Shown piece by piece: positions 5,000 through 62,365 of a DNA stretch of 64,000 nt (within the stretch, counting starts at the first letter, position 1; each line of letters starts with the position of its first letter). The translations under genes were made by a program, and so were the position numbers. A model generated the notes under the pieces. It saw only the letters and a list, made by a program, of their open reading frames with translations. It searched no databases and had not been told where the DNA came from. The stretch comes from Eledone cirrhosa. Lineage: Eukaryota. The stretch is from the NCBI GenBank assembly GCA_964016885.1, contig OZ024751.1:6882001-6946000 (forward strand), written 5' to 3'.

Positions 5000-5833
5000 C
5001 GTATTCCTCACCGGACAACCGGTGTGCGCCCCGTTCGTGAGGCGAGACTTCCCAAGACTCGTCTCGCTGACGGAGCTGCAGTCCTGTGTCAAGCAAAGAC
5101 CGAGGAAATGGGCGACTGGAACATCGAATGTGCTCAGGCGCTCACAGCCCTCTGGCAGGCGGACCCGGCGATCAGTGGAGACTCCACTTCGTCATTCTAT
5201 AGAGGGTTGATCCGCAGCAAGTGCGACAACGCGCTCGGTGAAACTTTAGGCGTAGAGGAAGATGAACTGGCCAGTCTGTTCGGTAGGACCTTCCACCCGG
5301 GACCGATGGACAACTTCCAAAAGTCCCTGGCTTGGCAGTGCTACCGAGGAGCTCTACCAGTTTGAGAAAAGCTCTACAGCCATGGGCACCCGGGCAGGGA
5401 ACCTGCAAAAAAGATCTGTCCGAGGTGCGTGCGTAACGAAGAAACCGTCGCGCACGCATTCATACACTGCCCGGGCGTCACTGACATGTGGGGCTATGTA
5501 GAACGACTATTGTCGCGGGCGGGACCAATCCGGTTGACCACCGAGCCCATTGTCATGATCAAACCGCCACCCTCCTTCAAAAACGAAGGAGAGGCGGTTT
5601 TCCTTTGTGTGATAGCTATGGCGAAAGAGGTTATATGGTGGACAGAGTTGAAAGGGCTGAGGTCAGACACCTTTGTCTCCGGCCAACAGCTGATTCTTTT
5701 TTTCAAATACCACTTTGGAAGAAGAATCAGGATGGAGAGAGAGGTGCTGTACCCCAGCAAGTTTTATGAAAGGTGGGTGAAAGTGGCGAGAATGGCCCGA
5801 GTGAATGGGCCTTCTCTCTATATCAGCCTGTAG
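5000..5833 (+). pseudogene. 3' fragment of L1/Tx1-clade LINE ORF2 (C-terminal zinc knuckle)
   Basis: ORFs 4919-5365 and 5429-5833 share a frame across one TGA: KSLAWQCYRGALPV*...CPRC...EETVAHAFIHC...W. Confidence 0.8.
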
Positions 5834-21055: not shown

Positions 21056-21116
21056 TTTTATCTGATGAAAGCGCAGCATAATTTGCTTTGGTGTCCTTGA
21101 AATATGTATAATGAAA
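21056..21116 (+). ncRNA. Hammerhead motif in family G pLTR
   Basis: ttttat-CTGATGA-aag..ctt-GAAA-tatgta-TA-atgaaa. Confidence 0.7.
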
Positions 21117-24980: not shown

Positions 24981-26909
<1,929 letters not shown>

Positions 26910-34526: not shown

Positions 34527-34830
34527 GGATGTTACACGAGAATGTTGAGGATGGCTCTGAACATTAATCAGTATACACTGAGGGTGAAAACTCAGAGCTG
34601 TATGGGAGCATCCCAAAAGTCAACTCAAAAGTGACACAGAGGAGACTGAGGTTAGCTGGACATGGACACACTAGAAGAGGAAGACCAAGGTTAACGTATG
34701 TTGATGCCCTAAGGACAGACACTGGTCTGTTGGAGATGCAGGACATGGAAGCGATAATGTGGGACAGAGACCGCTGGAGAGAACTCGTCCATGGATCTCG
34801 GGAATTTTACCCGCCTTAGATAGATAGATA
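34527..34830 (+). pseudogene. 3' end of RTE/RTE-X LINE with (TAGA)n tail
   Basis: [45 protein letters not shown]. Confidence 0.8.
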
Positions 34831-35308
34831 TGTAAGTATGTATACGTACACATATATATGTATACAGACGTACAGTAGTATGTATATATATACATACATG
34901 CACACATATATATATGTACGTATGGGTTTCCCGAACATTTATTATAATGTTCGGTTTATTTGTAAACAAACAGCCCGAATTAACCCGTACAGTGTTCTGC
35001 AACCATCGTCGCCCTTTTGTTCAACACTGACAAAGGGACGATGAACTAGTTTCAAGTGTATTAGCTATCGTCAGCATCGTATAATTTCCTGTCAGATGAT
35101 TGAACGTTTGAAAGTATATACTTTCCTTATGCATATTAACGGCTGAGCAGCCTAATTTGCATATCGAGTGAGTTAGTCGGCCGGGCGTACCGAAAAGGAT
35201 AAATGGAAAAGAATGAAATGAAATTTCATCTCTCAGTCTTAGTGCGGCTGATAATTAAATGTAATTATGTATACGTACATACATAATGTATACATACGTA
35301 CAGTAGTA

Positions 35309-40598: not shown

Positions 40599-43500
40599 AT
40601 ACCTAAAAAAAGCAAGAGTCACATTGAAAGAAAAACAATAAATACTTTTGCTTTGTGTTCTTTGCGCGCAAGCGAGATAGAAGAACAATGTATGCTACGG
40701 CGTGCTCGCAATGCTGCTTCTACTTCGATCACAAGTGCATTACAGATAACTGAACAAGCAAAACTCCAGCTCGCTCGCAATGCTACTTCTACTTCGAAGG
40801 CCAGAGCATTACGGACTGCTGAACAAGCAGAACGACAGCTTGCTTGCGATGCTGCTTTTACTTCAAATAGTCGTGCTTTAGAGACTGTTGACCAAAGGGC
40901 AACAAGGCTTGCGGCTGATTCTCAACGGAAAATGCGTTCTTATGTCTTTCCGAGGGTTTCTTCCTGTTACTGGTCTAAGATGGCTTTTCATTACGCATCC
41001 CACCCACATATCATCATTGGTAGCATGCCAACTGTTTGCGTCAATTGTAACGCAATGAGGTGACCAGCTGAATCAACAGGTATATGCTGCTCCAATGGAA
41101 CGGTTAGATTGCCTCATTTACAAGTCGGTGCCGAACCTTTGAATTCTCTACTGCTTGGAGACCACCCTGATTCTAAACACTTTCTTAGAAATATAAGAGC
41201 CTACAATTCGGCTTTCCCAATGACAAGCTTTGGTCATAAAACATGGAAATTATATGCCCACATTCAAAGTGCATCAAATTGACTCCCTTATTCCACAATA
41301 TGGCGATGAACACAGTTTTCTCCAGATTTACTTTATTGGGAACGGACATGAAGAAACTGCACGAAGAGCTTCATTTACTAAAGGAACAATATCTTTTCTT
41401 CTGCAGCCCTTTCAATATATGCTTCATACCATAAACACCTATGTCACCATTTTCAAAATTGCTTTTCAGCGTAGAGATGCTAACACCAATCAATTCAAGG
41501 TTGTCATTCGAGGTGACCGCGCTCCACCAGGGCAGCATCAGGGTTTCTTTAACAGACCCCAAATCGATGAAGTTGCGGTGCTTATAACAAGTCCTAATGA
41601 GAGTGCTTCAAACCGTGATATTGTTCTTGATTGGCAGGACACGTGTCTTCAAAAAATAAATGAACTTCATCCTGCATATGATGCCCTCCAATATCCATTA
41701 CTGTTCCCCTTTGGCGACGATAGCTACCGCAAAAACTTGCCAAAGTGTAATCCAGTAAGTTTAATGCATCTTCAACCACGGAAAACCATTTCACAAATTG
41801 AATGTTATGCATTTAGGCTTATGTTTCGCAAAAACGACATCATCATTCTGCATAAAATACGGATGCTCCTAAATCAATACTGTGTAGACGCATTTGCTAA
41901 GGTAACTATTTATTATTTTATGATTTCGTTCAGAACATTTCCTTAGCCAGTTCACTCAATATTTACCACAACAATTTCTTCCTTTTCCAGATTGACACTG
42001 AACGCCCTCAATGGATAAGACACCATCAAAAGGAAATGCGTTCAGAAGAATACGGCAATCTACGTGATGAAGTCAACCGAAATGATTAGGTTATTGCTTC
42101 GGATGTTGGGCTATCTGTCATTGTCCCATCGTCATACACTGGAGGCTCCCGTTATATGCATGAACAAATGCAGGATGCTCTCACCTATGTCCGCCATTGT
42201 GGCCGTCCTGATCTTTTCATCACCTTCACAGGCAATCCAAAATGGTTTGACATCCAGTCTCACTTACTTCATGGCCAACATCCTTCACACAGGCATGATA
42301 TCACATCTAGAGTGTTTCACCTAAAACTTATGAAAATGATGGATGTTATAAAATACGGGCAACTTTTTGGACCAGTAAGGTGTTTCATGTACACCGTAGA
42401 ATGGCAGAAGAGAGGACTCCCACATGCCCCTATTCCCCTTTAGCTTCAAAAAGATCTCATGTCAACTGATGTTGATTCCGTTATAAGTGCTGAATTGCCA
42501 AATCCCCAAGAAGACCTTGTCCTTTTTCAAATTATAAAAGCCAACATGATCCATGGACTGTGTGTCCACCTAAATCCAAAATCTGCATGTATGGATAATG
42601 GGAAATGTACAAAGCGTTACCCACGTAAACTTATCCATGAAACCAAAACTGGTGATGATGGCTACCCTTTATACCGTCGCAGGGCACCGCAGGAGGGTGG
42701 CCATACGGCAACTATAACAATGGTTGGTGGTCAAGATTTCAATATCGACAACCGATGGGTTTTACCACATAAAAAGGTGCTTTGTAAAATGTGTTCAGCC
42801 CACGTTAATGTTGAATTCTGCAACTCCGTAAAATCAATCCAATACATCTGCAAGTATATTCATAAGGGAGCCGATCGAACAGTTATTGAGTTGGCTAAGA
42901 CCGATAACACTGAAGCTGCCACAGATGAAGTCACGTTTTTCCAAACTGGACGCTACATCTCTTCAATGAGGCATTTTGGCACATATTCAGTTTTCCGATC
43001 CATGAACGTGAACCTGCAGTTATTCACCTCAGCGTTCATTTGGGGAATGGTCAACGGGTATATTTTAACCAAGAAAATATGCTTGACTGTGCAAGACAAC
43101 CTCGAAAAACGACCCTTACCGGATTCTTTGAGCCCATGCATCTGACTCTGTTGCCAGAACACTTCTTTATGCGGAGTTGTCTACATTCTACACGTGGAAT
43201 AGATCTTCCCGCTGTTGGCAAAGAAGAAAGCGAGGGTGCATTTCACAAAGGGATGCTTCGATGCGTGAGTCTGATGCCCTCTCAAGAGTGTACACCTTCG
43301 TCTTCTATTGCACGTTGTCAAAGGTCCAACTTCCTTTGAAGACCTTCGTACCATCAATGGCCATATTTGTTCAACATTTAAAGAGGCCTGCTCCACATTG
43401 GGTCTTCTCGAGAATGATGACCACTATGACAACGCCCTCCATGAAGCATCATGGCTGCAGTCCCAATTGTTCTTCGTAAGCTTTTCGCCGTTATGCTGGT

Positions 43501-58828: not shown

Positions 58829-58884
<56 letters not shown>

Positions 58885-58913
58885 GTGGTAGGCTGTGTGG
58901 TTACTGAAACCGA

Positions 58914-59021
58914 AGTGTTAGAAGGTAAACGGGACGTAAAAAAGAGAAAAGTATCGCTTCATCAGCTGTTTACTACAGATCACAGATGTTTCGGGGCTGG
59001 ATACTTTTCTTCCCCTGTTTA

Positions 59022-59082
<61 letters not shown>

Positions 59083-59594
59083 TCTCTCTCCATTAGGATG
59101 TTTTCGGCCTGGTCTCACGTGTCGGAAAACCCTTATGGATTAACTCGCTTTTCCTTCTCCTCTCTCTCGCTCTCTCTGTCCCACTCGCTCACCCCCTATC
59201 ACTTCTGGTTTCTCCGTCTCTCTCTCTACCCTCACTTTACTGAGATCGCCCCGGAAAAACCTTTCTCCGCATTTATCACTGCCAATGGGCTTACCCCATT
59301 GGCTTATTATAACTTATTCCACTTTCTCTTCGGTTACTTACATACATGTGCCATTGTCCTATCTACAAACTTCTATCGGTATGTTTACGTCACCTTTTCC
59401 TCTTTTCCTTATTTTCTTCTTCCACTCTCTTCACTATCACTTCTTTCCCTCTTGGTCTTTTGACGGATAAAAGGCCATGGGGGCGCTACAGATCGATGTT
59501 CTGTTTTATTAACCGAAACTTCTATGATCTCTAGTAAACAGCTGATGAAGGGATATTTTTCTTCTCTTGTTTACGTGCCGTATACATTCTAACG

Positions 59595-59596
<2 letters not shown>
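58914..59596 (+). mobile_element. Family F non-coding ~550-bp repeat with inverted 5' partial copy and scrambled hammerhead (59486-59548)
   Basis: 58914-58994 is an imperfect inverted copy of 59513-59596; 59000-59022 resembles 59552-59574. Confidence 0.7.
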
Positions 59597-59640
<44 letters not shown>

Positions 59641-59642
<2 letters not shown>

Positions 59643-60208
59643 AAAAGAATGAAACGAAATTTCATTTCTCAATCTTAGTACGGCTGATACCTAAATATAA
59701 GTATGTATACGTACATATATATATGTGTACAGAGGTACAGTAATATGTGTATATGGGTGCATGTATACATACATGCACCCATATATATATGTACGTATGG
59801 GTTTACCGAACATTATTTATAATGTTCGGTGTATTTGTAATTACCCAGCTCGAATTACGCCGTACAGTGCTCGGGAACCATCGTCGCCCTTTTGTTCAAC
59901 ACTGACACAGAAACGATGTACTAGTATATACTTTCAAATGTTCAATCATCTGACAGAAAGGTATACGATGCTGACGATAGCTAATAAGCTTGAAACTAGT
60001 ACATCGTTCCTGTGTCAGTGTTGAACAAAAGGGCGACGATGGTTGCCGAGCACTGTACGGCGTAATTCGGGCTGTTTGTTTACAAACAAACCGAACATTA
60101 TAATAAATGTTCGGTAAACACATGGGTACATATATAAATGTGTGCATGTATGTATATATATCGATACTACTGTACGTCTGTACACATATATGTATGTACG
60201 TATACATA

Positions 60209-60621: not shown

Positions 60622-62365
60622 CTAGCAGATTTACCCGGCGTTACTCGGGGTTTGACATTATGCTAATAATATACAGCTAGGAAGTAAAAGAAGAACATTG
60701 TTTGTCCCCTTGAAGCTTTTAATGTAGCTATTGTTCGAGTGAAGCATGTCTTGGAGGTCAATCAAGAGTTCCAGTTTAGTGTCTGAAGTGTATGATTGCC
60801 GTCGATCTGCTTGCTGATGACAGTTAACAATAAAGTAAACCTGTAACAATGGTGGCTCTTCAGTAGGCAACGGTTGCAGTGATCCAATGAGATGATACAC
60901 CTGGCCCTGTACTTTGAAAGTGGGCATAAATCCCTCTTCCTTCATACGTTTTACACCGAAAGTGGTCATTTGAAACGCAATGTTGTACTGTCGGATATGC
61001 TTCAGAAAATCAAGTGATTTTGAATGATTACCTGTTAGAAGCATCTGGAGAGGTTGCGGTGGTTCCCTAAGGGTGGGCAAATTAACCTTACGTTGGAGCA
61101 GCACATTCCAGCTGATTCCCCCCCCCCCCCCCACATACTTTTTAGCTTTACAATGTTGGCAAGTATTTGACATTGGATATATTTGAATATCAGGATGGAT
61201 TTGATAGTTTACATTAGGGTCATAATTAACTGCATTCAGGTAATATAGTAGGCGTGATGCCTTTGAAATACCCCGCGATAAAGCTCTACGTTGAGCGTTA
61301 TCCTCCAACTTGTTACAGTCTCTATAGCTCATACCGTAGCAGTAGCTGAAGCATTTTTCAAATGCCGACTTTGACGTTCTTGCTCAGTCTCAATTGCTCT
61401 TGCTGCAACATAGCTGAAACATTACCCGCACGGTGTCTTTCATACTTTTGTACTGTCTCTGCAGATCTTGCTGCAGCAGTATCTGTAGCATCCATAGGAT
61501 GGCATGTTTCACGTTGCTCTGTAGACTCTGCAGCTCGTGCTGCAGCAGTTGCTTTAGCATTATTGGTTTGCCGCACTAACCGACGCTCAGAGGCGTACAA
61601 AGATGTTGAAATAACTGTACTCACCGCATTTAGTGATTGTCTATTTTCGGTTATCGGCGGAGCGTCATTTACACGCATTTTTTTCTTCGACCGATAGCCA
61701 ATATATTCATACTTTCTTTTACGTGGCATATTTGGTGAAATGTTGTAAAGTCAAAATGTATGAATTGAAGCGTTACAGTTAACTTTGAAAGTGCAACAAA
61801 TTATATTTTTGTAACAACATGGCTTATGAAAGTTTTTAAAATGTAGAAGTTGTAGGACTCAATGGTTGAATGGAAAGTCCCATAACGATTGTTCTAAAAA
61901 TAAACAAACCATCATAAAAATCTCGTCAATTCGAGACTGCTGCGAGATTAGTGCCTTAACGCGAAAATTAACACTTAATATAGTGAAACAAGTTAAAACA
62001 ACAAGTGTTTTTTTTATTTTGAAAGTGCAACAAAGAATAAACAAGAAACAAACAATAATATTAGTTATTTATCTTCAAATGAATGTGATGTTATATTTCT
62101 GAAAAGTTGGTTATCTCCCTTTTTTATAAGGATTATCAATAAAGTTGGTTATCTCCCTTACATCAATTTTGCGACCGATAATTTTGATATCGGTTCTTAA
62201 TTGCTCAACGTTGCTCGATTTGAAAAATGTTTCTGATGTGACAATCTTAGCGACCTGTGCAACGAGCACAAACAATTTGGTCAAATTCAGTTGGTAATTG
62301 TAAAAGCCTTAAGTATGCAAAGTTGTACACAGACACACACATCCTAGCTTTTATATATATAAAGA
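60622..62365 (-). mobile_element. Internally deleted Helitron retaining the RepHel N-terminus (61729-60658, frameshifted)
   Basis: A|TCTTTATATATATAAAAG 5' end; cccgagtaacgccggg hairpin then CTAG|T; MPRKRK, CQHCKAKK, FLKHIRQYN.AFQMTTFG, FMPTFKVQGQVYH.IGSL. Confidence 0.9.

Follow-up and report, generated by a model that had tools for sequence, protein, structure and literature searches.

A hammerhead-type split-core RNA fold, probably self-cutting, in a Penelope-like repeat of Eledone cirrhosa

The F repeat and its motif in the window

We analyzed a 64-kb stretch of the Eledone cirrhosa genome, referred to here as the window. Towards its end, at 59091..59590 on the plus strand, lies a truncated copy of a non-coding repeat, family F. 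This copy has lost the 5' part of a unit that measures about 650 nt when complete, ends at a short tail site (about +41) and is followed by a (TA)n tract at 59595-59641. Its BLAST span (59058-59617, including flanking (CT)n/(TA)n) is 86.5% identical to a natural copy, L011. An inverted, 5'-truncated F copy at 58881..58998 (minus strand) starts about 8 nt past the predicted cut described below and keeps the GAAA and CUGAUGA blocks and a long tail of about 95 nt. A lone 80-nt piece of the junction/tail region of the F unit occurs at 34755-34834 (minus strand, 91% to L011). The same fold is carried by three copies of a related family, E, all with approximate ends: 26691..26796 (plus strand, core 26783), 26106..26211 (minus strand, core 26119), which leads a head-to-tail pair, and 25478..25583 (minus strand, core 25491). 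The single contig run compared with the window contains related copies and shows nothing beyond that.

The window contains 24 copies of CTGATGA, where 9.1 would be expected. GAAA lies 23 nt ahead of this string in the F motif, in the inverted partial copy and in the three E copies, so that the common spacing proposed in the original prediction holds. An Rfam scan of the window gave no match at the gathering threshold.

The original prediction placed a scrambled hammerhead at 59486..59552. The letters there are as quoted, and the inverted copy does supply the pairing alleles catc and gatctgtag. Its bounds were too short: based on the letters and on pairing counts over F copies, the full motif covers 59446-59553 on the plus strand, beginning 40 nt further upstream. 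The first drawing also missed a helix (X), a hairpin (Y) and a kink-turn signature present in most sister families, and F, taken there as the second of two families, is one of at least 10.

From sequence and comparison, the strand order is X5'-Y hairpin-II5'-P0-III-UH-I-linker-II3'-GAAA-III'-3-nt bulge-P0'-1 nt-I'-CUGAUGA-X3', all on the plus strand. The 5' strand of helix X (59446..59450) pairs with the bases immediately after CUGAUGA (59549-59553). Hairpin Y (11 bp, 59451..59479) sits directly between this strand and the upstream-supplied 5' strand of stem II (59480..59484), whose partner is 59510-59514. The segment 59486..59494 holds the P0 5' strand (59486-59491, partner 59529-59534) and three bases opposite 59526-59528; these pair Watson-Crick in F and form tandem G.A kink-turn pairs in most sister families. 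The cleavage-site block (59495..59506) is made up of the stem III 5' strand (59495-59498), U16.1 (59499), H17 (59500) and the stem I 5' strand (59501-59506). The hammerhead analogy, together with insertion starts, places the predicted cut at the 59500/59501 bond. The GAAA block (59510..59522) comprises the stem II 3' strand (59510-59514), GAAA (59515-59518) and the stem III 3' strand (59519-59522). Next comes the bulge/P0' region (59523..59535), with the 3-nt bulge at 59523-59525, the three bases at 59526-59528, the P0 3' strand at 59529-59534 and a single-nucleotide linker at 59535. The CUGAUGA block (59536..59553) closes the motif with the stem I 3' strand (59536-59541), CUGAUGA (59542-59548) and the helix X 3' strand.

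The window copy differs from the F majority at 11 of 121 positions. It retains the core, helix X (5/5 pairs), stem I (6/6) and 10/11 pairs of hairpin Y. It has lost three of five pairs in stem II, one of four in stem III (a U-U mismatch) and one of six in P0 (a C-C mismatch). Because of these losses, this decayed copy is probably inactive as a ribozyme.

Several other hammerhead-like sequences lie in the window. A canonical type I hammerhead at 59965-60007 (plus strand), with a pyrimidine mismatch at the base of stem II, is part of a repeat with long inverted arms (59761-59925 / 59995-60159) and has relatives with cores at 35074 and 29281, both on the minus strand. At least two other repeat families contribute type I hammerhead-like motifs, with cores at 21062+, 21280-, 23598-, 23760+, 54659+, 62855-, 62978+ and 63307- and GAAA 30-36 nt downstream; these eight are missed at Rfam gathering thresholds. 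ORF fragments at 41224-43145 (plus strand) and 60658-61383 (minus strand) resemble, and may be, pieces of a Helitron Rep/helicase.

Pairing across copies and families

F is repeated genome-wide. Scoring 40 of 830 first-look candidates from a motif search yielded 39 other copies, 85-92% identical. Among 42 ungapped full-length F copies, the core CUGANGA + GAAA + UH is intact in 32, and N7 and H17 vary only or mostly inside the allowed bases. The original prediction looked to a family-level comparison for its pairings, and there stem I (237/252), stem III (152/168) and P0 (233/252) are kept in the 42 copies; one P0 pair changes from A-U to G-C in 6 of them. Helix X (179/210), hairpin Y (432/462) and the upstream stem II (185/210) are paired to a similar degree, with no spare bases between Y and its neighboring strands. 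The short gg/cc stem II first suggested is paired in 67/84 cells at two pairs and in 103/210 when lengthened to five, and it gave way to the upstream strand. The complete set of X, II, P0, III, I and core survives in only 3 of the 42 copies; L061, L006 and L159 are natural F copies with full pairing. Selection acts on source lineages rather than on inserted F copies.

Pairing was also compared across families. In 20 representatives chosen for good P0/III/I pairing, 91.2% of 419 cells are paired and 18 of 21 pairs show double changes, against 31-49% pairing in slid controls. Across families, P0 is 91.7% paired. Stem II, which is the only selection-free part of this test because the rows were picked for P0/III/I pairing, reaches 82% with double changes in 3 of 4 pairs. 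A set of 11 representatives of F, E, K and H gave 44/44 for X (slid 13-35) and 44/44 for the upstream stem II (slid 2-27), against 19/44 at best for the direct stem II. MAFFT misregisters X and Y between families, and these counts were made without it. Stems I and III, P0 and the 1-nt linker are thus borne out both within F and across families. The proposal that the F and E stems have diverged while staying complementary stands as covariation across families, except that P0 of E needs one bulged C. Invariant columns in the 20 representatives are the hammerhead catalytic set, one linker A and one post-bulge G.

The families differ in detail. The 10.1-11.1 position is a G-C pair in F, in the HERO-like family described below and in a metagenome locus (L365), and is mismatched or unpaired in E and H. 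A simple X/Y search over 23 rows made no call in six (M, P, P2, I1, I2, O) and weak or mis-anchored calls in three more (N, N2, F4), so that the wiring of older families may be different. Families I and O (L226, L236, L241, L109) seem to have an X-like strand about 3 nt past the core, with no clear Y hairpin found there; their wiring is possibly simpler or intermediate.

A kink-turn consists of a 3-nt bulge followed by tandem G.A / A.G pairs. H, K, M and L365 have these letters where P0 meets stem III. Family E and two F-related copies (L158, L044) have one G.A pair plus A-U. F itself has a plain 3-nt bulge with Watson-Crick pairs at the kink-turn positions, and its 1n base is C in 40 of 42 copies.

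Nested folding recovers only Y and P0/III, in keeping with a pseudoknotted fold. The short motif from the window folds no better than shuffles (z 0.9), and a full intact F copy folds better (z -3.8).

Families in the genome and the same fold elsewhere

We searched the 3.0 Gb genome with two disjoint spacing patterns for F and related families. They gave 6,056 + 17,764 = 23,820 matches, compared with 29 + 164 = 193 for reversed patterns. Together with the covarying helices, these counts uphold the view of the original prediction that the motif is a selected scrambled hammerhead-type fold and not a product of chance. F-type rows make up 4 of the first 100 matches listed for the 17,764-match pattern. 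A narrower pattern exposed older families (210 matches vs 18 in the control). Anchored parsing left 137 distinct well-paired copies in at least 10 families (F, E, M, K, H1-H6, I, O, P, with N added separately). Common to all of them are a 6-bp P0, a 3-nt bulge, a 4-bp stem III, UH, a 6-bp stem I and a 1-nt linker. Another candidate, family G (L073-L108), came from a pattern with other spacing and was set aside: it is the 3' end of an abundant PLE with a C-terminal endonuclease and is not parsable as the split-core fold. Its GAAA lies 19 nt ahead of CTGATGA, and by the parse used it fits neither a type I hammerhead nor the split-core fold.

F is a non-coding Penelope-like repeat of about 650 nt. 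Its longest sense stop-free stretch is 119 codons, and no ORF was linked to F, E or H copies in the loci scanned. Units occur as head-to-tail pairs (14 in F; spacing 615-749), as head-to-tail arrays of up to 9 units and as head-to-head inversions. Among 79 copies, 3' ends cluster at two sites past the core (18 at +40-49 and 27 at +90-99), giving an optional 3' tail, and 50 of 68 terminating copies are followed by the (TA)n target. Beyond the ribozyme region, F shares only short matches (11-24 nt) with E and H. An ORF of 603 aa (L213; RVT_1 + GIY-YIG) upstream of a family-M motif was rejected as a partner and read as a separate insertion, because its own type I hammerhead-like tail and (TA)n precede the motif.

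The fold was also sought out of sample, in metagenome and viral sequences, with a pattern of core letters, spacing and kink letters from which X, Y and II were absent. At least 146 matches were found in at least 145 loci. Among the matches listed, P0/III/I pairing reaches 16/16 in two and no more than 11/16 in any other. X is present in both at 9 bp, Y at 8 bp and II at 6 bp, with G-C beside GAAA. The two represent an unrelated metagenome repeat from a single assembly and are counted as one. All 25 viral-contig matches were rejected as chance matches, as were, among the matches listed, 118 of 120 metagenome loci. The L365 copy of the fold and the end of an ORF overlap; full-length homologues of that ORF have RVT_1 and a C-terminal restriction-like endonuclease motif.

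This REL-type element group, which we take to be HERO-like, is also present in the E. cirrhosa genome, with 68 matches among 150 scored of 10,109 candidates. In its main family (20 loci fetched) the fold lies in the 3' UTR, and single 3'-UTR copies retain it whole. Pairing in 11 copies is 127/132 for X, 73/77 for Y, 54/55 for II, 55/55 for P0, 51/55 for III and 62/66 for I, and 12/44 for the direct stem II. The F unit has no similarity to this 3' UTR. These LINEs share the terminal fold with F and encode RT and REL, whereas F is non-coding; they have one 3' end site, with (TA)n after 5 of 15, and F has two. One locus (L413, G000:C2:317445500-317455400, junction near 5590) is a partial tandem in which a full-length copy, 5' end first, directly follows the endonuclease end, ribozyme fold and tail. 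The 3' ends of a second REL-type family (L395, L401, L405, L409), read by eye in decayed copies, seem to carry the fold with other stem sequences.

For Naiads, we read by eye 60 of the 62 CTGATGA occurrences, plus part 24, in the supplement of Craig et al. 2021 (PMC8557442). In eight published Naiad consensus 3' ends the blocks appear to run S-G-C, with P0 present. Besides Naiad_Obim and Naiad_Ovul, these are a related trio near parts 10-11 and single sequences near parts 12, 19 and 25. Five of the eight show X, Y and the upstream stem II with different sequences. X pairs only partly in Naiad_Obim and Naiad_Ovul, and the upstream pairings are weak in the part-25 Naiad. Two of the eight share the N23 spacing and the kink-turn letters. 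In that paper, Naiads are reported to lack canonical hammerheads, with 8 'half-core' cases that include Naiad_Ovul and Naiad_Esco. Two further Naiad 3' ends near parts 14-15 (by position, the nematode section) read by eye as type CSG with full stems; Eckert et al. (PMC10085705) knew this type from only two sequences, both metagenomic. Neither a motif taken from the tail of the published octopus Naiad, allowed up to 2 mismatches, nor a degenerate motif for the Naiad RT had any match in this genome (0 each), which does not imply absence.

The F repeat resembles Naiads in its (TA)n targets, tandem and inverted insertions and optional tail, as PMC8557442 describes them; it differs in having no ORF, and no sequence likeness of F to a Naiad was established. 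The same paper describes (TA)n targets, an optional tail, partial tandems and inverted 5' copies for Penelope-like elements generally. A Penelope study (PMC11167929) traces the tail to two internal RT start sites. Metazoan non-LTR retrozymes (PMC7229834; Li et al. 2026, bioRxiv 10.64898/2026.07.22.740005) are likewise non-coding tandem units with one hammerhead each and Penelope-like mobilization. They are type I hammerheads in units of 150-450 bp, whereas F, E and H have the split-core fold in units of about 460-800 bp.

Architecture, insertion ends and alternatives

The F fold has the conserved hammerhead core (CUGANGA/GAAA/UH) and stems I, II and III beside it. It lacks the direct link of 0-2 nt from A9 to the stem II 5' strand; what follows A9 pairs instead with an upstream strand as helix X. 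Its closest known relatives are type-SGC ribozymes (HRIMA-1 and the SGC variant; Eckert et al. 2023, PMC10085705), which share the order cleavage site > GAAA > CUGAUGA, pseudoknotted stems I and III and a short stem I-stem II link. There, block C is an uninterrupted run of I'-CUGAnGA-stem II strand that pairs with block G, as the Eckert patterns require. In F, what follows CUGAUGA has its partner upstream, on the far side of hairpin Y, and a different upstream strand supplies stem II. A further difference lies in the linker from III' to I', which pairs upstream in F (P0, via the bulge or kink) and downstream in SGC. We initially filed F under type SGC and withdrew the assignment: the block order agrees and the uninterrupted block C is missing, so the fold falls outside the SGC definition because the four-way junction opens the core. 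In the literature searched, where subscription papers are mostly missing, SGC, CSG and GCS were found only in Eckert 2023, and we found no description of the split-core wiring, nor any of Naiads or HERO-like elements with permuted hammerheads.

Insertion 5' ends at or just after the predicted cut are indirect evidence that points to cleavage in vivo. Of the 99 matches recovered around the first 100 matches listed for the 6,056-match pattern, 92 are H copies. Of the H copies, 57 are truncated within 500 nt; the start falls at -9 to +14 of the predicted cut in 11 of these and within the adjoining 50 nt upstream in 4 (binomial p 0.002). By eye, two of the latter four are fold-backs beginning at about +3 and +5, which changes the counts to 13 vs 2 (p 4e-5). 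In six H copies the start lies within microhomology at the predicted cut, and five of the six continue into the next unit. By analogy with these related-family insertions, which begin at exactly that bond, the cut originally predicted after 59500 appears to be supported. In head-to-tail pairs, the leading copy is without the cleavage-site block in 8/14 cases for F, 5/15 for H and 2/5 for E. The F leaders of this kind start at about +3 to +15, none exactly at the cut. Breakpoints were taken by anchored extension and reading by eye in place of BLAST ends, which were dropped because indels confound them. With this procedure starts past about +16 (H) or +25 (F) are invisible, and indels inside the unit may account for some apparent breaks. 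A promoter at the site of the cut would produce the same 5'-end pattern. For an anole Penelope, PMC11167929 reports that the ribozyme is dispensable for insertion in vitro and that no reads end at its cut.

As a whole, the evidence is best explained by a hammerhead-type split-core fold that is likely self-cutting and mobilized in trans as tandem units. We put this reading, drawn from sequence comparison, at roughly 80%. In the proposed mechanism, Y and the P0/III hairpin would form first, after which the catalytic core would be locked by stems II, I and X. In place of the usual link from A9 to 10.1 there would be a four-way junction, made by X, Y, II and the A9-G12 end of the core. P0 would be bent back at the bulge, which is a kink-turn in most families, such that the 1-nt linker reaches stem I. 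A transcript running across a head-to-tail junction would be cut at the upstream ribozyme. An RT acting in trans would then start at either of two internal sites, about 45 or 95 nt past the core of the downstream ribozyme. It would come probably from a Penelope-like element rather than the REL-type LINE, because of the two-site tail and (TA)n bias of F. It would copy one unit back, run off at the cut end and insert into (TA)n, regenerating a partial tandem. The downstream ribozyme would have to stay uncut in the template, or the template would be a ligated circle; arrays of up to 9 units permit either.

We weighed three other explanations. The motif might be an ordinary type-SGC hammerhead with a minimal stem II of 1-2 bp formed by the bases after CUGAUGA, leaving X, Y and the upstream strand as accessory or alternative structures. 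The two-pair gg/cc stem is possible in F, and SGC ribozymes of the same block order cleave in vitro (PMC10085705). We nevertheless think this very unlikely, since the direct stem II is not kept across families, including those of REL type, X would compete for the same bases, and in unrelated families X and the upstream stem II differ in sequence and are almost fully paired. A slimmer chance goes to a fold that is real and functional only as a dimer or across tandem units, with X5'-Y-II-P0-III from one unit and the CUGAUGA block from another. Head-to-tail arrays, the failure of nested-only folding to find the pseudoknots, and animal hammerheads that cut better as dimers (some, according to PMC7229834) all lend it some credit. 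Against it stand the 1-nt linker and the bulge or kink, which do not vary between families and fit a cis geometry, the 600-750 nt between units, and the single REL-type copies that retain the whole fold.

The slimmest chance we give to a non-catalytic signal, protein-binding or RT-stalling, with hammerhead-like letters, the clustered 5' ends arising from an internal promoter or RT stalling. Penelope pLTRs do contain promoters (PMC8557442), the 10.1-11.1 pair is missing in E and H, and F leaders begin a few bases past the cut. Against such a signal stand invariant columns that coincide, but for two bases, with the hammerhead catalytic set, and H copies that start at the predicted bond, with few starts in the structured 50 nt upstream.

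Taking the self-cutting, trans-mobilized fold as the preferred reading, a wider conclusion seems reasonably probable from the same sequence comparisons, at less assurance than the reading itself. This previously undescribed hammerhead architecture, in which a four-way junction and a kinked helix close a core that is open between A9 and stem II, would be an active and widespread animal ribozyme. It would be the missing hammerhead of Naiads, common also to REL-type (HERO-like) LINEs, and would set the 5' ends of tens of thousands of insertions in vivo.

Hammerhead searches presume that CUGANGA runs straight into stem II, which leaves three unbreakable blocks and six orders. Current descriptors and Rfam models miss this fold, with more than 20,000 copies in one genome, because it breaks that assumption. 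If the predicted cutting is true, it would explain the apparent lack of hammerheads in Naiads as against other Penelope-like elements, add a 3'-end ribozyme to a LINE group and suggest a module common to unrelated retroelements for making partial tandems. The 5' ends of insertions would then be a genomic record of cleavage in vivo, one that bears on the role of hammerheads in Penelope-like elements.
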